Below, piece by piece: positions 1 through 64,000 of a stretch of DNA of 64,000 nucleotides (the first letter of the stretch is position 1; each line of letters opens with the position of its first letter). Source of the stretch: Clostridia bacterium (lineage in GTDB: Bacteria > Bacillota > Clostridia > Christensenellales > UBA1242); contig JAFTMH010000002.1 in the NCBI GenBank assembly GCA_017452445.1, forward strand, positions 129,697 to 193,696. Direction: 5' to 3'. A program made the translations under genes and the position numbers. The notes below the pieces were generated by a model that was not told the DNA's origin, did no database searches, and was given only the letters and a program-made list of their open reading frames with translations.

Positions 1-3000
1 CTGGCGTAGGGGCTGCAACAATTGACGCTTCGGCAGCCACATCAATTGGAGAACTTGGTGTGCCGTTGCTGTCAATTTTTACATACTTCCACTTGTTGTC
101 AGTGCTGCCAATATCTGATTGCTCTTTATAAATTTCAAAAGTATCTGTGCCACCTGTGCCAAGAGTAAAGTCTCTGTAAATTTCAGAAACACCATCAATT
201 GTTGTATGGTTTGGTTCGCCATCATCTACAACAACACCCAACACTGTAACTCTTACATTTGTAATGTTTGCTGGGTTTGTTACATCGATTGTATTTGAGA
301 AGTTTCCTGTAGAATCATTTCTAATAAATGTAAATGGGTTGTAAACAACAGTTCTTTGATCATCTGCAGTTTGTCCTGCAATTGAAACTGTTTTTGTACG
401 CAACCATACTGCGATTGATTCACCTTCTGTGATGCTTGTGTCTGCTGAATAGATTTGTGGATTTGATGGTGCTGTGATTGTGAAGTAGAATCTAATTTTG
501 TATCCATATTCATCTTCACCTTCGATCACATAATATCTAGATCCCAATTGCAAAGCAACTGTGTTGACTGCAACCGAACCTCTATCTGCAGAATATGCAT
601 TTTCTTTTCCACCAGTGATGTCTGTCCAACCAGTTGCATCTGTGATGTTTAATGTATAGTCATTGTATGTCTTGTTTCCTTGATATGTCGAATTTCCATC
701 ACTTAAATATCTGTATGTAAATCTGTTTGAGTTGTTGAGTGCAGTGTCTGTGTTTCCATACAAGTATGCTTGAACTGTAGAATTTTCTTGCAACAATGCT
801 GTTTGTGTATTGTTATACAAATAGAATTTAATTGGATCAGTTCCATCAATTGCGTATGGGTTTTCGTAGTTGCTTGCAATTGTTTTGCCATCAACTGTTT
901 CGATACCTGCCGCATTGTAGATAGATGATGCTTCGTGCTTGCTCTTGAATCTAACTGTTGAGTTTGGTTCTACCTTGAAGAGCAAGTTGTGTGAAACTTC
1001 GATTTTGTTTGATGCGCCACCAAGATCTACCGAATAAGTAATACGCATCATAACATGATTGCCATCGTTGTTTGCACCACGGGCATAGATGAGATAGTCA
1101 ATTTTCTTGCCTGCTGGTTGTTCGCCAGAGTAAGAAATATAGTTGCCTTCAACATCGCCATCTGCAACTTCATCAAGAGTGCCAAAGTTGTAATCACCAT
1201 TCTTGATTGAAAGTCCGGTGTAATATTTGATGCCCAATTCGTTTGTTGTGGTTGTGAGTTTGCTGTCAAATGCTACTGCAGTTTGATACAAATCATCGCC
1301 TGCATATCTTGTGCTGTCTGATGTGTATCCATACATTCTCAAATCGATGTTTCCTGTTGATTCTTGAAGTGCTTGAGGTGTATAGTGCAAACCAGTACGC
1401 TTGTTGATAATGTCAGCTAAACCACTGTTGTAAGTTGTAAGCAAACTCTTTTCTTCGCCTGCTTTAATGTTGATTGTGCGATATCCTGTCATGCTGTCAG
1501 CATTTCCTTGAACTGTAAATTCAACATCCATAAACACTGTGTATGGATTGTTTGTTTCGATGTTTACAGTGCCAATGCTTACGACAACTGAATAGATAAC
1601 ACTCTTGCCATAATCGTCTTTTGTAAGCAATGTTGTTGCTGCGTCAACTCTGTTTGCGGCAGTGTTTGCTATTGTCAAAGTTGGAGCAGTTTCATAAATG
1701 TTTGTATCTGTCAACTTGTCTTCATTGCTTTCTGCTTTTGCTTGTGAGCTGAATGTGCCGACATAAGCATATCCCTTAAGTGCAGAAGTATAATCTACTG
1801 AAACTGCTGTGCCAGGGTTTTTAACCACAATTTCAACAACTTGAACAGCACCACTTGTTGTATTTTCAAATCTCAAGAAGTAAGTTGTGTCTGCCACTTG
1901 AGCAGCTTTAAACTTGTAGTTGAGATATCTTTCTTGGTTTTTAACAAATTTGATTGTTATACCTTCCAAAACTGTGCCTGTGTAATACTTGGCAACAATT
2001 CTGTTTTTGATTGTAGGTGCAAAGTCATAGATGTTTGAATCTGTAATAGCACCAACATTTTCGCTTGCATTTTCTTTTGATTCATAAGTGCCTTGGTAAG
2101 CATATCCTGTCAAAACCTTTCCAAAATCTACATTTTCTTTTGATCCTGGAGTCTTTGCTTTTGTAGCAACGATATATTCGATACCTTGTGTAGCATTTAC
2201 AAACTTCAAATAATATGTTTTTGTAGGTTCAACTGTTGCTTTAAATGTGTATGTCACAATTCTGTCTTCAGCAAACAAATGTTGATCTTCATATCCCGCC
2301 AAATCTTCGGCATAAATCTTTTCTTGACCATTTTCCCAATTTGGCTGGTTGAATTCTGTCAAGATAACTTCGCCGTTTACAAGAACTACCTTGTAAAGAA
2401 CAGGAACTGCGTTGATTTCAACGCTGAACACAACTTCACCGTTGCTTGATTGATCAATCAAACCAAACACAATGTCTGTAAGTGTACCTGTTGTGCTGAG
2501 GATCTTGTCAGTTGATTCTGCACTGATCACTTTGCCGTTGTAAATAACAACTGCATTTGTCAATGAGTAAACAGAAATCTTCCATTGCCATTCTGCTTCT
2601 GTGATTGTTGCTGGCTCGATCTTTGTGCCAACAACTCTGTTTGCAAGACCAAGCAATGCTTTGTTTGCAAAGAAGTTTGGATATGTTTCTGATGCTTTTT
2701 GAACACCATTTGCTTCATAAGTTGAAGTTTCAAATGTTGAAACATATTCTGTTGCAATCATAGTTTCGCCATCTGGACCAAGAGAAGTCAATTCTGTTGT
2801 TCCGTCTGGAGCTGCACCGTGTGCTACAACTGTAACATTTGGTTTGATTGCATAAGAACATTTAACTGTGAATGTTGAAATAACTTTGCCTTCAAACAAA
2901 TAGTTTACTGTCAAAGTTGTGTTTTTGAATGTCAAAGTTGAAACATTTTCGCAAACAATGACATTTGCTGCTGTTGCAAATTGATAATCTGCAACTTCTG

Positions 3001-6000
3001 TTTCGCTTGTGCCTTTAAAGCAGTTCAAAATGTCGCCAATTGAAACTGTTTCTGTATCGGCAGCAAAGATTGCATTTGTAATATCATAACCTGCCACTTT
3101 CTTTCTATCGAAATCTGCTTTGACAAGTTTTGAAATTGCAAAAGTATAATCCATGCCATCACTGTCTGTGATTGTGATGTCAAAATTGAATGTAACATCT
3201 TTTTCCAAACGAGCAAATGTAATAGATTTTGTTGCCAAATCAAATTTAACCAAATCACTATACAAAATGTCGTCACTGTCATCTTCTGGTGTGCCAGCGT
3301 CTGAATACACTTCGTCACCATTTGTCAATGTAAACAAAACATCTTCTACTGTTGTGCCATCTTTGTTTGAGCTGATTGATGTAAAGAATGTGTTTGTGCC
3401 TGTTGCGTTGGCAACAGCATTTCCATCAATACTTTCTGATGTGTAATATGTTTTTCCACCAACAAATTCTGTAACAGTGTTGTCTTCCCAATCAAAGTAA
3501 CTTGTGATTGTGACAAACACTCTAAATGCAAGTTTTTGATCTGTGAAGATGCCTACGACAAATTCGTAATCCTTGTCAACAGCCCATGCTGGAAGAATGT
3601 AAATTTCTGAAACTTCTTCATCTATATAAAGGTCATCAACACAAGTCATAAAGATGTCAAAATCTGCAGCGCCATAGAACACTGAGAATGAATCTACAGG
3701 ACTTGAAGTGTTGTTGCTTGTTTCAACAAGGCTCACTTTGAGTGTTGAATAATCATCAGCACCTGCGTTGAGTGTAACTCTATAAATATAGTTTTCGTGT
3801 GTAAGAGGAGTTCCGTCAAGTGTAACAGTTGGGACATAGTTTGCGCTTTGGTTGAACAAGAATACATAATCTTGAGTTCCACCAATAACTTCGATATCTC
3901 CAACAAAAATTGATCTTCTTACAACAACCTTAAGTTTGTTTGCTGCGTTTGCAAGTGTGATTGTCATCACGCCGGCATCGCTCACTGAATAAGTGAAGTA
4001 ATTTGCGTATTGTCCTGTTGGGATTGCTCCAGAAACATTTTCTGCAGACACAACATTGTATCTATAAACAATTGCTTCTGCTGGAGTTTCTGCCCATTCA
4101 ACAAGACCAAAACGAGTTGGTTGTGGGTCGGCAGGATCAACAGAGTGTTTGCTGTTGCCTGGATTTAATGTTTCTTCAAAGTCAATTTCGTATGTTGCGT
4201 TTTCTTTATAATATACAGAAGCGCTATCCAAATATTCAGCACCATCTGCATATGGATAATAGATTTGTCCCATTACAAAGTTTGGCACAACATGGATTCT
4301 ATAATACCAAGAAATTGCTTTAGAGTTGTCACCTGCCATCACAACATCAAGTTTCAACACGATGTATGCATCTGTGTAAGAGTCGCCCATGTTGTTGATA
4401 ACAAGTCTGTCACCTTCGACTGTTGCAAGATTTTCTACATAACCTTCTGCTTCTTCAACAATTGAAAGTGTGTAGTTTGCTGTTTTAGATTCGCCAGTAA
4501 GGCCGGCTGTAGTTCCTTCAAAATAGAAACCATATGGATTTGGATCTGTGATTTCAAGATCTGTGTCATAAACAACTTGATATGATTTGCCTGCAACAAG
4601 TTGTTGTGCAACTCCTGCATCTTCAAGTGCTTGATAATCTCCCAAAAGCACATCAAGTGCTGCATCTTTGTCATCTTCGTAAACAACAAAGTTTTCGCCG
4701 ATTTGACTTACGACAGCTTTAAGTGTGATAAACACTTCCAAAGTTTTAGGTCCTGAAGAAATGTCTCTCTTAACAACAAATTCGTTTCCTTCAAAACTTA
4801 CATAGTTTGGAATTGTTCCATAAACCATAAGTCCTGCAGCTGATTGCTTGATTTGTCCTGTAATGTTGTTTGTGATGTTGAATCCACCTTGTGCTTCATA
4901 TTCGAAACCAGCAACCAAAACAAGCATTGTTTGTCCTTCGTATTCAACGATTGGGACATCAACTTTGTTTACACCAACTTTCTTTTTAAGGATTGTTGAT
5001 GCCATTGTTGCAGGGTCGCCTGCACCAAAACCGATTTGGAAGTTGATTGTCGCAAAAACATCTGGACATTTTGCTGTTGATGATGTGCCATCTGTATAGC
5101 AAGACACAATTGGTGCTGCAACAGCAGATGTGCCGATCATAATCTTAAACTTTTGTTCAAACACTTCACCCAAAGTCATTTGAAGTTGTGCTTGTTCCAA
5201 ACCAAACGAACTTTCGGTCACTGTGATATATTTTGAAGTTGAAATGTTTGTGTAAGAAATTCCTGCAACTGCAGTCAATGAATCAAACTTTTTGTCTGCT
5301 GCCAAATATTCTGTCAATTTGTAAACTGAATAATGTGAAGCAGGGTTTGCTGTCGCCAACAATCCAAGGTCTACAAATGGAATGTCACCTTCTTCGTTGA
5401 CATTTTGTTTGATCACAAAGTTTGGATTTACATACAAAGTCACTTCAACTCTGCATGCATATTGTGAGTTTGTTCCGTAATACAAAACAAGGGTGATTGT
5501 CTTGTATTCTGAAATTTCGCCAATTTCAAGAACCATCTTTTCAACATTTCCACCATCGTCCAAAATTGGTTTGATAGAGCAAATGTTTCCGTTGTCATAG
5601 AACACGCCTTCTGGGTTTGACTTGAGGTCATCTTCCGAACGATCCTTCAAAGACCCTACCCAAGTGTATGTTGTGCCTGTGCCGTGTTGTGCAGAAACGA
5701 TTGGGAAGAATGAATCCAAATCGTAAGCAGTGCCAGCAAGCACACCGATTTGACTGTCTTTTGAAACCAAATAATCTTTGTTTGCTTCGTAGAAGTTGTT
5801 GAAATTGTGTGCGATTGTAAGGTCACTCAAGAACACAACATTGAGAGTGATGTCAAACAATGCTTCTGCAGTATCTCTAACTCTAAATGTAACTGTTGTG
5901 CTTTCGTTGAATGGATTGACGATGCTGATTTGTGAAATCAACTTGTTTTTGTAATATACAATAGAATCTTCGTCTTCTGCATCACTTTCAACATCAAATG

Positions 6001-9000
6001 CCAACATTTTCATGATGTCAAATTGTGCGTCTGTTGATGCTTCCATAGATGACAAATAACCATTGTCGAGATAGAATCTCAAATCTGAAGCAAGAACTTC
6101 TGTGCCGTCTTCATCTGTTGTGTAAACATTGATAAGTTCTGCCAAATTGATAAGGGATTCTGGTTTTACATATTTGCTTACATAAACCACACTCTTTGTT
6201 GTCAATGCGTTTGAATCTTCATCAACATCTGTGTAAACAATTTGATCTGCAGATTCTTGAATCAATGTTGTAGAATCATATTCCACTCTTGACACGCCTT
6301 GGCTTGTGATTTGGAATGTAAATGCTCCAACTCTCAAATCGTTTCCTTCAAATTTGATGTTGTCGCCATTTGTTGTGATTGCATAAACATAAAGTTTTGT
6401 TGTGACTGATTCGCCTTCTGTTGAAGAGAAGTTTGCAATCTTTGTTTGTGTGCTATCAAAACTCAAAATCTTGCTGTTGCCTGGAAGTGGTTCTTCAACA
6501 AGTTTGTATGTGTAAAGACCATCTGCATAGTCAATATCTTTGTTTCTTTGGTCTTGCATCTTAAATGTCAAATAGTTGTTGAGTGTTGCCATAACATCTT
6601 CTGTTGTATTTCCAGCAAGTTGTTCTGTGCCCCATTTGATTGATGTGCCATCTGTTGCAGAGATGTTAACTTCGATTGTGCTTGCAATGTTGATATTTGG
6701 GTTTGTTGCATAATCGCCAACAAGTGAAGTTGGTTGTTGATAATAAATTCTGAAATATTCTTTGCCTGTTTCTGCGTGAACAATTTCTTTTTCATATGTT
6801 TCTTTGCCATCGTTGTATTTGAGCAAAAGTCTTACATATGTGCCTTGGTCCAAACCAGCTGTTGCTGCTTTGAAAAGGCCTTCGTTTACATTTAAAGCTC
6901 CTTCAAATGTAACTGTAGTTTCCTCAACTGCAGTTTCTGCCAAACCAGCAAGTTTGACATATTGATTTGTTTCTTTGCCGTCAATGCCAACGCAAACAAC
7001 ATCAAGTGTGCCAGCTTCAAATGCTGCAACAACTTTTTCGCTGTCTGAAGCAACATCTTCGCTGTTTTCCAAAACCATCTTAAATGTGATCATTGTTGCT
7101 TGTTCGCCACTTTCATTTCTCTTGACAGCAGGCACGAAGAAGTTTCCATCAACATCTGTTTCAACATTTTCTGACATAACAAATGTTGGTGTCATGTTTG
7201 CAACTGAAAGTGTGCTTTCAACTGTCACAACTCTTGTCTTTCCAAAAGCTACAATTTGATATTTGCCACCTTCGTCATAAACAATCTTGTTGTCAGCATT
7301 TGTTCTCACAAGCGCTGCAACAACTTTAACTGCACCAGCATAACTCTTCTTTGCTGTCAAAACCGAGCTGCTAAGTTCGTAAAGTGTAAAACCTTCAGCA
7401 GGAGTTGTTGTGTTTGGGATAACAAGTGCTTGACCTTTGTAATCTGCTGCGTAAAGCACAGCATCACTACAGTTGAATGTTTCAAGCATGTTGATTGTTT
7501 CTGCAAAACCCATTTCGTTTCTGTCGATAAACAAGAAGTATTTTACAGTTCTGTAAATATTGTCTTTGTCAACATCTTGAATTTCGTCTGCCAAGTCAAC
7601 ATTGCTTGAAATTGGTTTTCCTGTTTCGTCATAGTTGATAACCAATGGGATTGCATCAAGTTTGCTCCAACTTGGAACAGTTTCAATGTCGTGGTTTTGA
7701 GCTTCCAACACAACTTTGTTTTCGCTTGCAAAATCAAAGAAGTTTGTCCATACACCATCTTTTTGTTGGAAGAAGTTGTATTTCAATTCAAGCGATTGTG
7801 CTTGTGTTGTTGAAAATTCCCAGAAATATTCGTTGTAGTTTTCTGGAGTTGAATCTGGAAGCAAGTAATATTCTATGCCTGCTTCTGCTGCAAAGTAGTT
7901 TACAGTTGGGTCATATTCTTCCATTGTGATTGTGTAAACACCTTCTGTTTCAACAACTTTGATGATGTCTCCACCTTTCAAAATCACATTGTCTGCAGTT
8001 TTTGGAAGTTTGATACCAAAGTTTCCTACAAGTGTGTTGAGTGTAACCTTTTCTCCTTTGATCACAAGACCAAAGTTTTCGTTGCTATCCAAAGAAGTGC
8101 CTGTTGTGATATAGAACTTTTTGTCAACATAAGCATACCAAGTTTCAGTTCCGTCTGCTTTGACATCAACAACAACTTGTCTTACTTCTTCTTCCTTAAC
8201 CTTGATGTTGATTGTGTCGGTTTTAAATTTGTAAGTTTCGTTGTTTGTTTCACATTCGGTGAAATATTGAATTGCTTTTGCGTTAAGTTCGTAAGGATCA
8301 GTAATGCTTTTTACATCTTCTCTGTCAAAAAATTCTTTTTGATAGAATGAGTTTGAAAAAACATAAACTGTTATGTAGTCAAGGTTTACACCTTCTGTTT
8401 TTGTTTTTGCCAAAAACTTTCCTGTTGTCCAATTGTAGTCAATGCAAGATGCAGAAAATTTGTAGAATTGCTTTTTAGATGTAGAAGCATCACCAAACAA
8501 ATATTCGCTGTCGCCAGGAGTAAATGTTGCATCAACTGCAAATGTTGATCCCAATGCAATTTCTCTTACATCACCTTCTGTTTCTTGTTCGCTTTGATCA
8601 TCAACAGAAATGTCAACATCAATGTCATAAACAGGGACATCAACTGAAATATAAATTTTTTGAGAAGGGAGATTTATGTTTTCTGACTTTGCAGTGAGTT
8701 CTGATCTAAGTCCTTGTCCACCAACAACCCAGTTGTCGTTGATGTCAGAATTAAATTGCTTCACAAGCATAATGTCAATTGGCTTTCCAATTTCTGCTTT
8801 TTCTTTCACAGAGATGATGCCGTCACTGACATAACCATTTCTAGTAACCCCACCTTTGAGTTGAAGTGTGATTTCTTTGTTGGTTGCGTCTTCTGTGCCT
8901 GTCGTAATCATCAATTTGAAATCAGAAGAAGTTTGGAAGACATAATTTCCTTGCTCCATACCCGAGCAGTATGCTTCGCCGTCTACGACCGTTTCAACAA

Positions 9001-9148
9001 ATGAAAAATTCTCTGGGTCAATGTTTTTCTCATTAAATTCACCCATCAAGAACAATGTCAGCGCTGTGCCACCTGCAATGGCAATCATGCCTGCAAAAAC
9101 AAGCAACACTGTTTTCCAAAGACTAAGAACTTTTCCCTTCTTCTTCAT
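1..9148 (-). CDS. Giant secreted/surface protein, N-terminal part only (>3049 aa); the ORF continues past the left window edge
   Basis: ATG at 9148 lies 7 nt downstream of GGAG (9159-9156 on the minus strand). My hand translation of this frame reaches position 2 without a stop. The N-terminus MKKKGKVLSLWKTVLLVFAGMIAIAGGTALTLFLMG is a signal anchor. The rest is Thr/Val/Asn/Asp/Tyr-rich and contains repeated modules. No track ORF falls in this frame, which fits an ORF with no stop inside the window. Confidence 0.85.
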   Translation of the reverse strand, partial: MKKKGKVLSLWKTVLLVFAGMIAIAGGTALTLFLMGEFNEKNIDPENFSFVETVVDGEAYCSGMEQGNYVFQTSSDFKLMITTGTEDATNKEITLQLKGGVTRNGYVSDGIISVKEKAEIGKPIDIMLVKQFNSDINDNWVVGGQGLRSELTAKSENINLPSQKIYISVDVPVYDIDVDISVDDQSEQETEGDVREIALGSTFAVDATFTPGDSEYLFGDASTSKKQFYKFSASCIDYNWTTGKFLAKTKTEGVNLDYITVYVFSNSFYQKEFFDREDVKSITDPYELNAKAIQYFTECETNNETYKFKTDTINIKVKEEEVRQVVVDVKADGTETWYAYVDKKFYITTGTSLDSNENFGLVIKGEKVTLNTLVGNFGIKLPKTADNVILKGGDIIKVVETEGVYTITMEEYDPTVNYFAAEAGIEYYLLPDSTPENYNEYFWEFSTTQAQSLELKYNFFQQKDGVWTNFFDFASENKVVLEAQNHDIETVPSWSKLDAIPLVINYDETGKPISSNVDLADEIQDVDKDNIYRTVKYFLFIDRNEMGFAETINMLETFNCSDAVLYAADYKGQALVIPNTTTPAEGFTLYELSSSVLTAKKSYAGAVKVVAALVRTNADNKIVYDEGGKYQIVAFGKTRVVTVESTLSVANMTPTFVMSENVETDVDGNFFVPAVKRNESGEQATMITFKMVLENSEDVASDSEKVVAAFEAGTLDVVCVGIDGKETNQYVKLAGLAETAVEETTVTFEGALNVNEGLFKAATAGLDQGTYVRLLLKYNDGKETYEKEIVHAETGKEYFRIYYQQPTSLVGDYATNPNINIASTIEVNISATDGTSIKWGTEQLAGNTTEDVMATLNNYLTFKMQDQRNKDIDYADGLYTYKLVEEPLPGNSKILSFDSTQTKIANFSSTEGESVTTKLYVYAITTNGDNIKFEGNDLRVGAFTFQITSQGVSRVEYDSTTLIQESADQIVYTDVDEDSNALTTKSVVYVSKYVKPESLINLAELINVYTTDEDGTEVLASDLRFYLDNGYLSSMEASTDAQFDIMKMLAFDVESDAEDEDSIVYYKNKLISQISIVNPFNESTTVTFRVRDTAEALFDITLNVVFLSDLTIAHNFNNFYEANKDYLVSKDSQIGVLAGTAYDLDSFFPIVSAQHGTGTTYTWVGSLKDRSEDDLKSNPEGVFYDNGNICSIKPILDDGGNVEKMVLEIGEISEYKTITLVLYYGTNSQYACRVEVTLYVNPNFVIKQNVNEEGDIPFVDLGLLATANPASHYSVYKLTEYLAADKKFDSLTAVAGISYTNISTSKYITVTESSFGLEQAQLQMTLGEVFEQKFKIMIGTSAVAAPIVSCYTDGTSSTAKCPDVFATINFQIGFGAGDPATMASTILKKKVGVNKVDVPIVEYEGQTMLVLVAGFEYEAQGGFNITNNITGQIKQSAAGLMVYGTIPNYVSFEGNEFVVKRDISSGPKTLEVFITLKAVVSQIGENFVVYEDDKDAALDVLLGDYQALEDAGVAQQLVAGKSYQVVYDTDLEITDPNPYGFYFEGTTAGLTGESKTANYTLSIVEEAEGYVENLATVEGDRLVINNMGDSYTDAYIVLKLDVVMAGDNSKAISWYYRIHVVPNFVMGQIYYPYADGAEYLDSASVYYKENATYEIDFEETLNPGNSKHSVDPADPQPTRFGLVEWAETPAEAIVYRYNVVSAENVSGAIPTGQYANYFTYSVSDAGVMTITLANAANKLKVVVRRSIFVGDIEVIGGTQDYVFLFNQSANYVPTVTLDGTPLTHENYIYRVTLNAGADDYSTLKVSLVETSNNTSSPVDSFSVFYGAADFDIFMTCVDDLYIDEEVSEIYILPAWAVDKDYEFVVGIFTDQKLAFRVFVTITSYFDWEDNTVTEFVGGKTYYTSESIDGNAVANATGTNTFFTSISSNKDGTTVEDVLFTLTNGDEVYSDAGTPEDDSDDILYSDLVKFDLATKSITFARLEKDVTFNFDITITDSDGMDYTFAISKLVKADFDRKKVAGYDITNAIFAADTETVSIGDILNCFKGTSETEVADYQFATAANVIVCENVSTLTFKNTTLTVNYLFEGKVISTFTVKCSYAIKPNVTVVAHGAAPDGTTELTSLGPDGETMIATEYVSTFETSTYEANGVQKASETYPNFFANKALLGLANRVVGTKIEPATITEAEWQWKISVYSLTNAVVIYNGKVISAESTDKILSTTGTLTDIVFGLIDQSSNGEVVFSVEINAVPVLYKVVLVNGEVILTEFNQPNWENGQEKIYAEDLAGYEDQHLFAEDRIVTYTFKATVEPTKTYYLKFVNATQGIEYIVATKAKTPGSKENVDFGKVLTGYAYQGTYESKENASENVGAITDSNIYDFAPTIKNRIVAKYYTGTVLEGITIKFVKNQERYLNYKFKAAQVADTTYFLRFENTTSGAVQVVEIVVKNPGTAVSVDYTSALKGYAYVGTFSSQAKAESNEDKLTDTNIYETAPTLTIANTAANRVDAATTLLTKDDYGKSVIYSVVVSIGTVNIETNNPYTVFMDVEFTVQGNADSMTGYRTINIKAGEEKSLLTTYNSGLADIINKRTGLHYTPQALQESTGNIDLRMYGYTSDSTRYAGDDLYQTAVAFDSKLTTTTNELGIKYYTGLSIKNGDYNFGTLDEVADGDVEGNYISYSGEQPAGKKIDYLIYARGANNDGNHVMMRITYSVDLGGASNKIEVSHNLLFKVEPNSTVRFKSKHEASSIYNAAGIETVDGKTIASNYENPYAIDGTDPIKFYLYNNTQTALLQENSTVQAYLYGNTDTALNNSNRFTYRYLSDGNSTYQGNKTYNDYTLNITDATGWTDITGGKENAYSADRGSVAVNTVALQLGSRYYVIEGEDEYGYKIRFYFTITAPSNPQIYSADTSITEGESIAVWLRTKTVSIAGQTADDQRTVVYNPFTFIRNDSTGNFSNTIDVTNPANITNVRVTVLGVVVDDGEPNHTTIDGVSEIYRDFTLGTGGTDTFEIYKEQSDIGSTDNKWKYVKIDSNGTPSSPIDVAAEASIVAAPTP

Positions 9149-9345
9149 AAAAAATCTCCAAAAAATAATTTCTCAAAAAAAACAAAAAAATAAATTTAAT
9201 AATATTGAAATTGAATTAAAAATATTGTTTGCTATTTTCGATAAATTAATTATACATTTTTTTTATTTATTTTGCAAACAAATCAATTCGTTTTTTTTAT
9301 TAAATAATAAAATATATATAGGCATCATTTTGTCTTTGGTTTAGG

Positions 9346-9374
9346 TTGACAGAAACGCTTTTATAGTTTATAAT
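9346..9374 (+). promoter_or_regulatory. Sigma-A type promoter, TTGACA-17 nt-TATAAT, ending 6 nt before the ATG at 9381 (leaderless configuration)
   Basis: TTGACA at 9346-9351, a 17 nt spacer and TATAAT at 9369-9374. TAAGAC then precedes the ATG, and there is no Shine-Dalgarno sequence. Confidence 0.6.
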
Positions 9375-9380
9375 TAAGAC

Positions 9381-12459: not shown

Positions 12460-12465
12460 AAGCAT

Positions 12466-12611
12466 AGCATTGATGGAATTGGCAACTCCGGAGCAGACGC
12501 TTGTCGGCGTAAAGACGGTTAAACGAGGTAAGATTCATTCTTATAAAATAGGGTGGAACAGCGGTTATAGATATAGTCGCCCCTGTGCTTAAACAAGCAT
12601 AGGGGTTTTTT
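12466..12611 (+). promoter_or_regulatory. T-box riboswitch leader (glycine type) with terminator/antiterminator
   Basis: T-box sequence GGGTGGAACAGCGG at 12551-12564. Its UGGA fits a tRNA-Gly U73 discriminator base. Candidate specifier GGC(A) at 12481-12484. Terminator CCCCTGTGCTT-AAAC-AAGCATAGGGG plus T6 at 12580-12611. It sits directly upstream of glyQS. Confidence 0.85.
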
Positions 12612-28683: not shown

Positions 28684-29016
28684 ATGGAGCATAGATTAAG
28701 AAAAAACAATCAATTCAACTATATCTACAAGAAGGGAGAAAAAACTCATACAGACAATTTGACTCTTTTTGCTGTTAAGAGCAAATACGAAAGTTATAAA
28801 ATCGGATTTTCAATCAGCAAAAAGTTGGGCAAAGCACATGAGAGAAATCTTTTGAAAAGAAGGATGAGAGAAATTTCTAGAAAATTTGTGTCGATTCCTT
28901 CTTTTTGTAATTTTGTAGTTTTGGCAAAAGAAAATGCACCAAAACTTGATTTTGTTGAATTGAAAGAAGAAATGATTAAGTTGTTTGAAAAATATGAAAA
29001 CAAAAAACATTCTTAA
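28684..29016 (+). CDS. rnpA: Ribonuclease P protein component
   Basis: 110 aa basic protein (LRKNNQFNYIYKKG..., KAHERNLLKRRMRE) in the conserved rpmH-rnpA position. Confidence 0.9.
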   Translation: MEHRLRKNNQFNYIYKKGEKTHTDNLTLFAVKSKYESYKIGFSISKKLGKAHERNLLKRRMREISRKFVSIPSFCNFVVLAKENAPKLDFVELKEEMIKLFEKYENKKHS

Positions 29017-57837: not shown

Positions 57838-58668
57838 ATGACTATGGGAAAAATTATTGCATTTGCAAACCAAAAAGGTGGAGTTGGAAAAACTACAACC
57901 TGTATAAATGTTGCAACATATATGGCCCTTATGGGAAAAAGGGTTTTGATTTTGGATTTGGATCCACAAGGCAATGCTACAAGCGCTGTTGGTATAACAA
58001 AAACTAAGGATCTTAAAACAATTTATGATCTTATCGGTGGCGAAAGCAACTATGATGATGTTATCAAACCAACTATAGTTAAGGATTTGTTTATCATTCC
58101 TTCAACAGTAGATTTGGCTGGCGCAGAAGTTGAATTGATTCAAATTCCACAAAGAGAAAAGGTAATTAAGAGAATTTTGGACGAAATTTCAGATAGTTAT
58201 GACTTTATTTTGATTGACTGTCCACCATCTCTTGGTTTGATTACTGTAAACGCTCTTACAGCGTCAAACAGCATTATCATTCCAATTCAATGCGAATTTT
58301 TTGCTTTGGAAGGTCTCACTCAACTTATGAACACGGTTAGATTGATTAAATATCATCTCAATCCAGATCTTGATATTGAAGGCGTTGTAATGACAATGAA
58401 AGAAAAGCGTTACAATTTGACAAATCAAGTAAGCAATGAAATCATAAAATTCTTCAACAAGAAGGTTTATTTGACAACAATTCCAAGAAATGTGAGATTG
58501 GCAGAAGCGCCAAGTCATGGTTTGCCTGTGGCATTGTATGATTCAAACTCAAAAGGTGCAGAAGCATATTTGAGCCTTGCAGAAGAAATTATGAGAAGAA
58601 ACGGAACTGCGTTTACAAGAATTTCAAAAGTAAAAAAAATAAAGTTTAAAGGGGATAATGATGAGTAG
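57838..58668 (+). CDS. soj: Chromosome partitioning ATPase ParA/Soj
   Basis: Deviant Walker A NQKGGVGKTT. DLDPQGNAT. Confidence 0.93.
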   Translation: MTMGKIIAFANQKGGVGKTTTCINVATYMALMGKRVLILDLDPQGNATSAVGITKTKDLKTIYDLIGGESNYDDVIKPTIVKDLFIIPSTVDLAGAEVELIQIPQREKVIKRILDEISDSYDFILIDCPPSLGLITVNALTASNSIIIPIQCEFFALEGLTQLMNTVRLIKYHLNPDLDIEGVVMTMKEKRYNLTNQVSNEIIKFFNKKVYLTTIPRNVRLAEAPSHGLPVALYDSNSKGAEAYLSLAEEIMRRNGTAFTRISKVKKIKFKGDNDE

Positions 58669-59602
58669 TAATAAAGGACTTGGAAGAGGTCTTGAAGCCC
58701 TCTTCGGCGTATTTGATGACAATAATGGTTATGATAACATAACAAACAAAAATACAAAAACAAACAATGGGGTTTTGGAAATTGATATAACAAAAGTAAA
58801 ACCAAACCCAAATCAACCTCGTAAAAATTTTGATCCAGATGCATTGAATGAACTTGCTTCTTCAATCAAGGTTCATGGCATTGTTCAACCTATCGTAGTC
58901 AACCAAGAAAGCAACGGCGAGTATATGATTATTGCTGGAGAAAGAAGATGGAGAGCTGCAAATATTTGTGGCTTAAAGACTGTCCCTGCAGTAGTTAAAA
59001 ACTATACAGAAAAACAAGTAAAAGAAATCAGTATTATTGAAAACTTGCAAAGAGAAGATCTCAACCCAATCGAAGCTGCAAGAGCAATTAAACAACTTAT
59101 GGACGAATATGGTCTTACTCAAGAAGTTGTTTCTGAAAGAATTGGAAAGAGTCGTTCCAACATTGCTAATACTCTTAGATTGTTGACTTTGTATCCAGAT
59201 GTAATTGATATGGTAGAAGTTGGAAAGCTGTCAGCTGGACATGCAAGATGTTTGGTAGTTGTTGAAGATCAAACAGAACAAATTAAGTTGGCTCAAATTG
59301 CAGTTTCTAAAAATTTGAGCGTGCGTGATCTTGAAAAGATGGTTAAAAACTATATGCACCCTACAAATAAGGTGGTTGTAAAGCAAGAGCAATCGTTGGA
59401 ATTGAAAGAATTGATCAATCAAATGCAAAAAACATTTGCAACAAAGGTTTCTGCAATAGGAAATGACAATAAAGGTAGAATTTATATCGACTATTACACA
59501 AGAGATGATCTTGACAGAATTGCAGAATTGCTCGAATTGCTCAATAAAAAAGAAATGACATTGCAAGATTTGCAAAACTACAACAAAAGAACTTCAAAGT
59601 AA
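58658..59602 (+). CDS. spo0J: Chromosome partitioning protein ParB/Spo0J
   Basis: GLGRGLEALF, IVQPIVV, the GERRWRA arginine patch, and an HTH. Confidence 0.93.
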   Translation: MMSSNKGLGRGLEALFGVFDDNNGYDNITNKNTKTNNGVLEIDITKVKPNPNQPRKNFDPDALNELASSIKVHGIVQPIVVNQESNGEYMIIAGERRWRAANICGLKTVPAVVKNYTEKQVKEISIIENLQREDLNPIEAARAIKQLMDEYGLTQEVVSERIGKSRSNIANTLRLLTLYPDVIDMVEVGKLSAGHARCLVVVEDQTEQIKLAQIAVSKNLSVRDLEKMVKNYMHPTNKVVVKQEQSLELKELINQMQKTFATKVSAIGNDNKGRIYIDYYTRDDLDRIAELLELLNKKEMTLQDLQNYNKRTSK

Positions 59603-59613
59603 ATTATAGAAAA

Positions 59614-59629
59614 TGTTTCACGTGAAACA
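59614..59629. other. parS site 1, a perfect 16-bp palindrome
   Basis: TGTTTCACGTGAAACA matches the Firmicute parS consensus exactly, 12 nt after the parB stop. Confidence 0.9.
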
Positions 59630-59733: not shown

Positions 59734-59749
59734 TGTTTCACGTGAAACA
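59734..59749. other. parS site 2, a perfect 16-bp palindrome
   Basis: TGTTTCACGTGAAACA again. Both copies sit in the identical 24-nt palindrome AAAATGTTTCACGTGAAACATTTT. Confidence 0.9.
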
Positions 59750-62046: not shown

Positions 62047-62272
62047 TAAAAATTGCAAAAAAATTAACAAAAAATCGATAAAAATGCATATTTTAAAATA
62101 TTTTAATATTCGAGAAATACGAATGAAATCAATTTTTTGATAATAAATAAAAAAGAGATTTTTTCATCTCTTTTTTTGTTGTTTTTATGGTAATAAAATT
62201 ATATTTAAAATTAATTTTTTTTAAATTTATTTATATTTAACTTTTTGTTTTAACAAAGCGATTTTAGACAAT

Positions 62273-62697
62273 AAAAAAAGAAGTCCGAAAACTTCTTTAG
62301 TAGGGACACGCGGAAAGCCATGTTGTTTTTATATTCCCCATTAATCCACAAATCAACAAAAGATATGTAAGTAAATTTGTTGATCCATCAAAGCGATTTT
62401 TTTGATGAATTCAAAATATAACGAGTATATCTTGAATCTGCAATAACCATGCTCTTACAAGCAAACGTTGACAATTACTTGAACTTGTCAAGTTTTAACT
62501 GAAAATTGTTGGGTAATCAACTTTTCAGGTTTGAGATAAATCTCAGGTCAGATTATTGTTCTACTATTACCGTGAGTCGTCTTTGGCCATGGCAAACTGT
62601 GTATTTGAACATTTCAGAACAAACAGTGACACATGTAATGCAACATGATATGTTTTTCGGTCAGACTTAACACCAACCATTCAAGTGGTTAATGTCC
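62273..62697 (-). ncRNA. Structured RNA gene of about 400-425 nt. Best guess is a divergent RNase P RNA (rnpB); otherwise an unclassified large ncRNA
   Basis: The gap is ORF-free. The gene has its own promoter and terminator. A closing helix pairs GGACAU (62697-62692) with GUGUCC (62309-62304), and at least nine internal hairpins follow. RNase P-like motifs appear in the correct order: a P3-like hairpin with CUUGAA loop, CACAGU, CACGGUAA, GAUUAAUG, ACAACAUGGCUUU. The CR-I position reads GUUAAGUCU rather than GGAAAGUCC. Confidence 0.55.
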
Positions 62698-62701
62698 AAT
62701 C

Positions 62702-62730
62702 ATTTTACTATATATAAAAAATAATGTCAA
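62702..62730 (-). promoter_or_regulatory. Promoter of the structured RNA gene
   Basis: On the minus strand: TTGACA at 62730-62725, a 17 nt spacer, TAAAAT at 62707-62702. The predicted start is near 62696. Confidence 0.7.
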
Positions 62731-63101
62731 ACAAATTTCATAACTTTTTTAAAAATTTTTTAATAAGATTATTTCTTCAAAAAAATGTTTTGAAGATTTG
62801 ATTGAATGCAGAAAAAAAACAAACAATTTAAGAATGCAACAAAGAGAAACAATATATTTTATTTTTGTGAAAACAAATAGTCCAAAAACATGCAAAAAAT
62901 CGGTGTTTTTGGGCTTATTTAATGATAAACGACATATTCTTTGAGAGGTGTGGATGCCTTTGTTTATGGGCAGAAAAAATATTTTAAAATGGCATATTAT
63001 ATTGTTTATAATTTAATAATATATTTTTATTAAATATACTTTCAATTTTTTGACAAAACTGCTATAATCAAAATGTAACTTTGTGACACAAAAGGTGGAC
63101 T

Positions 63102-64000
63102 ATGGCTGGCGAAAGAAAACGAGTTGTATATTTTGATTACCTGAAAGCACTGCTTGTTTTTTTTGTTGTCGTTGGTCACGCATTGGATCCGTTTGTTGAC
63201 AATGTTGGAGCCAAAGCTTTGTTTTTGACAATCTATTCGTTTCACATGCCACTCTTTATTTTCTTGTCCGGTTATTTTGCAAAGTGGAATTGGAAGAAAT
63301 GTGTGGCTTACTTTTTGATTTACATATTTGTTTCGGCAATTTATACTGCTGTAAAACTTATTTCAACAAGCTCGACAAAAATTTCTTTCATGTCTGTGCT
63401 CAACGGGTTTATTTATCCTCAATGGACTTTGTGGTTTTTGTTGGCTATGCCATTTTGGCTGTTTACAACAAAACTTATCAAAAATGTTAAGGTGTGGCAC
63501 ATCTGTTTGGCAGTTGTTTTGACATTGGCAATAGGATTTATCCCTCTTAAAGGAACTTTTTTGACTTACAGCAGAATTTTTTATTTTATGCCAGTCTTTC
63601 TGTTTGGGCGTTGGTGCAGGCAGAACAAAGACAAGTTTTTGAAAGCAGTTGAAAAGCTGCGAAGGGTTGATGTCAAGGTTGTGTCAGCCATTATGCTGAC
63701 ATTGACTTTGGTGCTTATGCTTTTTGTTTTTAAGGATTTGAAGCACTCGTTTTTTTATGGAAATGGTCGATACAAAAATCCGATTGATCTTGTGTGGAGA
63801 ATTGTTTGTTTGCTAATTGGGGGGGGCAAACAGTTTTGCAATCATGATGCTTACGCCATATCGACAAGAGAAAATGGTCGGAAGTTGGCCAGTTTCACTG
63901 TCAAAGTTTGGAGAAAGGACTTTTTCAATATATTTGTTTCACACTCCACTTTTGATGGTGTTTAAAACATACTTGGCAGTTTATTTTGAAGCAAACCTTT
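63102..64000 (+). pseudogene. Acyltransferase-3 (OafA-like) membrane O-acyltransferase, frameshifted at a G8 tract; continues past the right edge in the corrected frame
   Basis: N-terminus YFDYLKALLVFFVVVGHAL...FHMPLFIFLSGYF is typical of acyltransferase_3. After G8 (63819-63826) the annotated frame ends at 63965. The frame one base further along (codons from 63826) reads ANSFAIMMLTPY...GERTFSIYLFHTPLLMVFKTYL, the family's C-terminal motif, and stays open to 64000. Confidence 0.75.

Follow-up and report, generated by a model that had tools for sequence, protein, structure and literature searches.

Does the 1-kb non-coding gap found close to one end of this DNA encode a divergent RNase P RNA, or a large RNA that belongs to no described class? 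These were the two options left by an earlier note, and it is the second that is supported by the analysis of the window (i.e., the whole stretch of 64,000 nucleotides, hereafter 64 kb): the RNA is conserved, extends from a promoter to a terminator, is structured and non-coding and finds no match in Rfam. With a probability of roughly 0.7, the minus-strand segment 62697-62277 represents a gene that is transcribed independently and yields a stable non-coding RNA of ~420 nt, highly structured and outside the described families.

A promoter-to-terminator unit in an ORF-free gap

The gap had been described as devoid of ORFs and less AT-rich in its center, and both properties are borne out by the data: the longest ORF present on either strand between 62047 and 63041 has 54 aa, and the G+C content is 0.30-0.38 across 62250-62700 vs 0.11-0.19 in the flanks. 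The same can be said of the promoter assigned to the minus strand, TTGACA-17-TAAAAT (62730-62702), which is the top-scoring promoter-like site of the region in a promoter scan and whose boxes and 17-nt spacing are kept in the alignment with the corresponding loci of L004 and L055, two other Candidatus Caccovivens species carrying the RNA at the same site; the -10 box of L004 reads TATAAT, and in L055 the sequence of the spacer differs although the boxes and their spacing stay. As to the proposed terminator, a hairpin (62298-62277) followed by seven U is indeed found, and its stem and loop are 100% identical in the three species; the automatic terminator scan skips this hairpin because it has two G-C pairs, the threshold of the scan being three. 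Promoter and terminator together predict a transcript of ~420 nt, from 62697 to 62277 of the minus strand, in which the RNA position p is 62698 minus the window coordinate. The features of the locus are the following.

62763-63101, no strand: A+T-rich, non-conserved spacer outside the RNA, in which the acyltransferase gene has its promoter region; the collinear stretch shared with L004 reaches as far as 62762
62702-62730, minus strand: sigma-70-type promoter with -35 box TTGACA (62730-62725), 17-nt spacer and -10 box TAAAAT (62707-62702); 11 of 12 consensus matches
62277-62697, minus strand: predicted transcript, a structured non-coding RNA of ~420 nt, from the promoter-terminator bracket, conservation and predicted fold
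62271-62298, minus strand: intrinsic terminator, AAAGAAGU, loop UUUCGG, ACUUCUUU, then U7; stem 62298-62277, read from the sequence
62149-62177, no strand: A-run, GAGAU-AUCUC hairpin and U-run, likely a bidirectional terminator of the convergent CYTH gene, read from the sequence

Downstream of the RNA there is no gene on the minus strand, and the second of these terminators, which to judge from its sequence would also stop read-through coming from the RNA gene, precedes the convergent CYTH gene. On the opposite side, the stretch of non-conserved spacer that precedes the RNA promoter contains a plus-strand promoter-like site (62983-63012 in the promoter scan) and, at 62882-62912, a 9-bp inverted repeat (CCAAAAACA / TGTTTTTGG) followed on the minus strand by a U-rich run.

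The genes of the window include dnaN, rpmH, rnpA, yidD, yidC, mnmE, mnmG, rsmG, parA, parB and those for rubrerythrin, tRNA-Ser, a histidine phosphatase and the CYTH protein. In the segment 27127-30654, the plus strand carries dnaN and then rpmH, rnpA, yidD and yidC; the rpmH-rnpA pair is usually located upstream of dnaA, not after dnaN. Two perfect parS sites (TGTTTCACGTGAAACA, 59614-59629 and 59734-59749), a number of matches reached by none of 100 shuffles, lie just downstream of parB (58658-59602). At the other end of the window, the minus strand of 1-9380 is occupied by a single ORF of >3057 aa, presumably a giant surface protein, which runs off the window start and is accompanied there by no other ORF of at least 120 aa.

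Conservation and predicted fold of the RNA

The RNA occurs in the same place and orientation in three metagenome contigs of the same species (L001-L003) as well as in L004 and L055. Candidatus Caccovivens corresponds to the GTDB genus UBA11517 of the family UBA1242, order Christensenellales (PMC8035907). The identities to the window are listed below.

RNA: L004 96.2%, L055 87.0%
Histidine phosphatase gene (flank): L004 83.1%, L055 75.9%
CYTH gene (flank): L004 84.1%, L055 80.8%
Spacer 3' of the RNA: L004 82.5%, L055 62.1%
tRNA-Ser: L004 100%

As judged from these values, purifying selection acts more strongly on the RNA than on the protein genes next to it, the RNA differing between the window and L055 by 13% where coding DNA differs by ~20%. 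Collinearity with L004 ends ~30 nt upstream of the -35 box, and this limit, together with the preservation of the promoter boxes on either side of a changing spacer, indicates that the element under selection is exactly the promoter-to-terminator unit. According to a covariance-model search, the RNA is present in a single copy within the window.

The surroundings of the RNA gene are less constant. In this species only, an Acyl_transf_3 gene (63102-63965, plus strand) that is not found in L004 and L055 separates the RNA promoter from a large repeat-protein gene; in the two other species the latter gene comes immediately next to the RNA and is divergently oriented. Between species, the repeat proteins encoded at the locus are only 24-35% identical.

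The RNA is predicted to fold more stably than shuffled sequence, the MFE z-scores being -3.8 (window) and -2.9 (L055); the opposite strand yields -3.6 vs -3.8, so that MFE alone gives no strand discrimination. The orientation is fixed instead by ~15-17 G.U pairs, which the opposite strand would turn into C.A mismatches, in conjunction with the promoter and the terminator; the assignment to the minus strand on account of G.U pairs, made from a single sequence, is thus upheld.

The consensus fold of the three sequences comprises 140 pairs in 14-15 predicted helices, about two thirds of the RNA being paired; 97.8% of the pair cells in the alignment are standard pairs, and variable columns account for 12.5% of the paired vs 22.6% of the unpaired positions. 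When the homologs of the three species were checked for covariation, compensatory double changes were found at four pairs, namely 155/164 (AU to GC), 211/226 (CG to UA), 261/289 (AU to GC) and 316/344 (CG to UA), compared to 1.3 +/- 1.0 in shuffles, 8 of 500 of which reach four. No double change occurs in any of six slid controls, a type of control that is biased by the fact that the consensus structure was built from the same three sequences that were tested. Most helices are invariant among the three sequences, and their pairs are hence predicted ones.

Eight of the nine local hairpins drawn in the earlier note reappear in both the MFE and the consensus folds; the remaining one (62654-62650/62646-62642) gives way to a longer alternative formed by RNA 47-55/62-69. 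Most helices recur also when L055 is folded alone, a fold in which the 207-213/224-230 hairpin is drawn in a shifted register. The main elements of the predicted structure are, in 5' to 3' order, as follows.

62669-62696, minus strand: H1, 11-bp 5' hairpin (RNA 2-12/19-29) with invariant CUUGAA loop, from the consensus fold and pairing-preserving changes
62652-62668, minus strand: 5' strand of the predicted long-range helix H2, consisting of AAGUCUGA (RNA 30-37) and AAAC (RNA 43-46), from the folds
62567-62651, minus strand: H3-H5, three successive hairpins (RNA 47-131), the best-conserved part of the RNA, from the consensus fold and the alignment
62298-62566, minus strand: large multibranch domain closed by UAGUAG/CUACUA (RNA 132-137/395-400), from the consensus fold

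In H1, three one-sided changes (G2A, C10U and G25A) each leave the affected base paired; this hairpin takes up the bases to which the earlier note had given P3-like, P1 and CR-I-like roles. The MFE and consensus folds agree with that of L055 alone on the predicted partner of the H2 5' strand, which consists of UCGGACUU and GUUU (RNA 406-417) and is, like that strand itself, invariant in the three species. The terminator supplies the 3' strand of H2 from its loop and 3' arm (62281-62298), and since these are complementary to RNA 30-46, the terminator hairpin and H2 are mutually exclusive. Inside the multibranch domain, the predicted helix H7, CAAUAAUC/GGUUAUUG (140-147/250-257), encloses four hairpins, one of which has a GUAA tetraloop, and is followed by three long hairpins, whose conserved loops measure 5-15 nt, and then by a variable 3' hairpin (RNA 351-394). 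H2, H6 and H7, being invariant, have the status of predictions. Two loop-loop complementarities, between ACUUGAA of H1 and UUCAAGU of H10 and between AUUACC of H9 and GGUAAU (127-132), are present and invariant; they are not claimed as pairings, approximately one such case being expected by chance at this base composition according to our own estimate.

Alternatives to a new RNA

If the conserved unit were not an RNA acting in trans, it could be an element acting at the level of DNA, an RNA with a cis-regulatory or attenuator role, the terminator hairpin being in competition with the 5' segment, or a gene for a small protein. In favor of such readings are the mutual exclusion of H2 and the terminator hairpin and the origin-proximal position of the locus; against them are the lack of a minus-strand gene downstream, the further terminator before the convergent CYTH gene and the substitutions, which respect RNA pairing, with G.U pairs confined to one strand. 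As for a protein, a 37-aa ORF (62567-62680, minus strand) is open in all three species, but it lacks a ribosome-binding site, its AUG lies in the loop and stem of H1 and its substitutions are distributed 0/12/5 over codon positions 1/2/3, so that it was rejected as a coding gene. The plus-strand ORF of 54 aa is broken in L055 and was likewise discarded. Taken together, these alternatives appear quite improbable.

The possibility that has to be weighed at greater length is that we are dealing with this lineage's own RNase P RNA, drastically altered in the course of genome reduction. It is invited by several circumstances: the size and the stand-alone gene of ~400 nt with strong promoter and terminator signals, like those of a housekeeping gene, are as in RNase P RNA of type A (RF00010) or type B (RF00011), and so are the multi-domain fold and the presence of a long-range helix with an AAGUC segment. 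The genome itself is a reduced one (PMC12306168). Moreover, rnpA, which had been placed at 28684, is indeed there (28684-29016) and encodes a full-length Ribonuclease_P domain protein scoring 92.5 bits, yet no RNase P RNA was detected in the 64-kb window; nor was rnpB found in ~445 kb of related loci. Against this identity, a canonical rnpA would point to a canonical RNA partner elsewhere in the genome.

The covariance models offer nothing in favor of a divergent rnpB. None of the RNase P models of Rfam matches the window at gathering score, and at E<=10 RF00010, RF00011 and all other RNase P models remain silent for each of three queries from two species, two taken from the window (1151 nt and 441 nt long) and one from L055 (441 nt).

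The two ways in which the RNA can be threaded onto an RNase P scaffold fare no better. The first, which follows the motifs seen in the earlier note, takes GGACAU/GUGUCC as P1 and ACAACAUGGCUUU as CR-V. This 5'/3' pairing exists in the window only: both of its varying pairs, 2/393 and 4/391, are mismatched in L004 and L055 with no compensatory change. If the proposed P1 (1-6/389-394) is considered along with a P4 (30-36/378-383) drawn from the same motifs, there are three variable pairs, all three of which become mismatches and none of which is compensated, pair 31/382 being broken in two of the three sequences. The supposed CR-V reads ACAACAUGGCUUU, ACAAUAUGGCGUU and AAAAUGUGGCAUCU in the three congeners, with the core GGCUUU, GGCGUU and GGCAUC, respectively, so that even GGCUU, which should be universal, varies; it is situated where the RNA varies most, in columns 371-388, within the 3' hairpin. 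Of the other motifs, GAUUAAUG is one base shorter in L055 and CACGGUAA is changed to UUCGGUAA in the alignment. The RNase P-like motifs said to occur in the right order turn out to be literal strings of one sequence that are not conserved as motifs.

The second threading equates P3 with H1 and P4 with AAGUCUGA/UCGGACUU, the AAAGAA ahead of the latter helix replacing ACAGAA. Here the resemblance of H2 to P4 (AAAGAA...CGGACUU vs ACAGAA...CGGCUU) is a point in its favor, but AAGUCUGA is predicted to pair with the terminator region instead of the proposed CR-V, H2 would pair the universally bulged U of P4, and the covariance models lend this threading no support. The absence of CR-I, already pointed out in the earlier note, is confirmed, GGUGUUAAGUCUG being found where GAGGAAAGUCC is expected: there is no GAGGAAAGUCC made up of an unpaired J3/4 and the 5' strand of P4, and the only 11-mer of the window at no more than one mismatch from CR-I is inside a coding ORF. 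GGUGUU, the "CR-I-like" string, serves as the 3' strand of H1, so that the would-be J3/4 is paired, and the substitutions occurring there keep, and thereby favor, that pairing. Finally, P1 and P2 are missing, and the order, nesting and topology of the helices differ from those of RNase P RNA.

At the level of primary structure, local and semi-global alignments to the RNase P RNAs of B. subtilis and E. coli (both entered by hand), compared with shuffled sequence, gave z values of 0.7, 0.1, 0.3 and -0.1, i.e., shuffle level. The best local match to these sequences is a 10-mer, AACAUGGCUU, whose distance from the 5' end equals that in the B. subtilis rnpB so entered and which speaks to that extent for a relationship; the B. 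subtilis RNA also has CUUGAA, then 11 nt, then AAGUC, and this was counted on the same side. All considered, it is very unlikely that the RNA is a bacterial RNase P RNA in recognizable form, and the remodelled version of this idea also strikes us as very improbable. Its most specific formulation, in which the RNA is the catalytic partner of the RnpA of the window, lacking P1, P2 and the consensus of CR-I and J3/4 and having AAGUCUGA/UCGGACUU after AAAGAA as P4, is more improbable still; if true, no bacterial RNase P RNA described so far would be as aberrant.

A very divergent member of another known class, whether tmRNA, 6S, SRP or one of the large orphan RNAs (OLE, ROOL, GOLLD, HEARO and raiA), is hardly credible either: reduced, A+T-rich genomes may well push RNAs under the thresholds, as suggested by a T-box leader of the window (12461-12587, plus strand) whose 45.9 bits, under a gathering score of 93, point to low standard-model scores for the structured RNAs of this genome, but 4227 Rfam families searched at E<=10 yielded only eukaryotic snoRNA and miRNA noise, which differs between the window and L055, and the models of OLE, ROOL, GOLLD, HEARO, raiA, 6S and SRP gave nothing at that threshold in either. 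With its ~420 nt, the RNA has twice the length of 6S RNA. tmRNA (ssrA) is of similar length and is a housekeeping-style gene expected in every bacterium; unlike it, the RNA described here has no tRNA-like 3' end or domain, no CCA-proximal acceptor or T arm and, in the three frames, no tag ORF ending in ...AA-stop, and tmRNA was rejected also because ARAGORN finds only tRNAs and there is no Rfam tmRNA match. OLE (RF01071), ROOL, GOLLD, raiA and HEARO resemble it in being long, ornate, multi-helix non-coding RNAs that came to light as G+C-enriched, ORF-free gaps of A+T-rich Bacillota genomes; they differ in that no match of sequence or structure to them exists here, in that the adjoining prophage tRNAs or typical partner genes are missing and the RNA belongs so far to one genus and, as far as OLE, ROOL and GOLLD are concerned, in their greater length.

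Distribution and possible role

The best reading is thus that of a genuine new structured RNA, stand-alone and lineage-restricted so far; what is found is what a structured RNA gene should display, namely a promoter and a terminator of its own, absence of coding, selection resulting in a conservation above that of its neighbors and substitutions that preserve pairing in a predicted closed, multi-domain structure.

The known carriers are three species of a single genus of gut Clostridia with reduced genomes. Among the 51 genomes collected by CYTH homology, the nearest of which is the Candidatus Caccovivens MAG L004, the RNA is present in this one only; it was not found near the CYTH gene in 47 other related genomes, and two short contigs stop directly after that gene. 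CYTH relatives at <=79% amino-acid identity have other genes downstream, synteny being lost outside the genus. A profile HMM made from the three sequences detected no further copy over all the collected loci, and when a covariance model of the central domain was run over 554 kb of related DNA, nothing came up beyond the three copies already known. Of two patterns scanned against metagenomes, the first gave 0 matches and the second three, all chance 24-mers without flanking similarity; two exact-pattern scans of viral contigs gave 0 matches, and no similarity to the RNA was found by blastn in phage and plasmid collections, so that a phage or plasmid origin was rejected. An RNA diverged by 13% at 81% identity of coding DNA would be missed by exact patterns in other genera, so that these pattern negatives are weak; no homologue was found outside the genus, the farther-reaching searches being the weak ones. 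The other ORF-free gaps of the window contain no comparable candidate, and nothing was found in the literature on RNAs of the Caccovivens/UBA1242 lineage.

With regard to function, the 5' hairpin H1 would protect the 5' end of the new RNA, the long-range helix would join RNA 30-46 to the terminator region, and the three hairpins would be followed by the large multibranch domain, whose conserved loops could serve as contact sites. The RNA would act in trans, as a structural RNA of the housekeeping type, and is most likely a component or scaffold of a ribonucleoprotein, not a base-pairing regulator or a cis element; a component or scaffold fits better with the 5' hairpin, the joining of RNA 30-46 to the 3' terminator region by H2, the consensus promoter, the pairing of ~2/3 of the bases and the long invariant loops carried by covarying stems. 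Restriction to one genus, if real, would sit uneasily with a role in housekeeping.

Large, intricately folded bacterial RNAs are rare, and those known (RNase P, tmRNA, OLE, ROOL, GOLLD, HEARO and raiA) have been informative to study. The members of the family UBA1242 have genomes under 1 Mb, with a coding density of ~90%, and a presumed partner-dependent lifestyle (PMC12306168), a compactness that makes the retention of a 1-kb non-coding locus notable; a reduced-genome family keeps here a non-coding locus that has a consensus promoter and evolves more slowly than the protein genes adjoining it. The locus also raises a testable question concerning the whereabouts of the RNase P RNA in these organisms. 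Should the RNA prove to be abundant and widespread in UBA1242, a new ribonucleoprotein or ribozyme function, linked to life with a reduced genome, would come into consideration for it.
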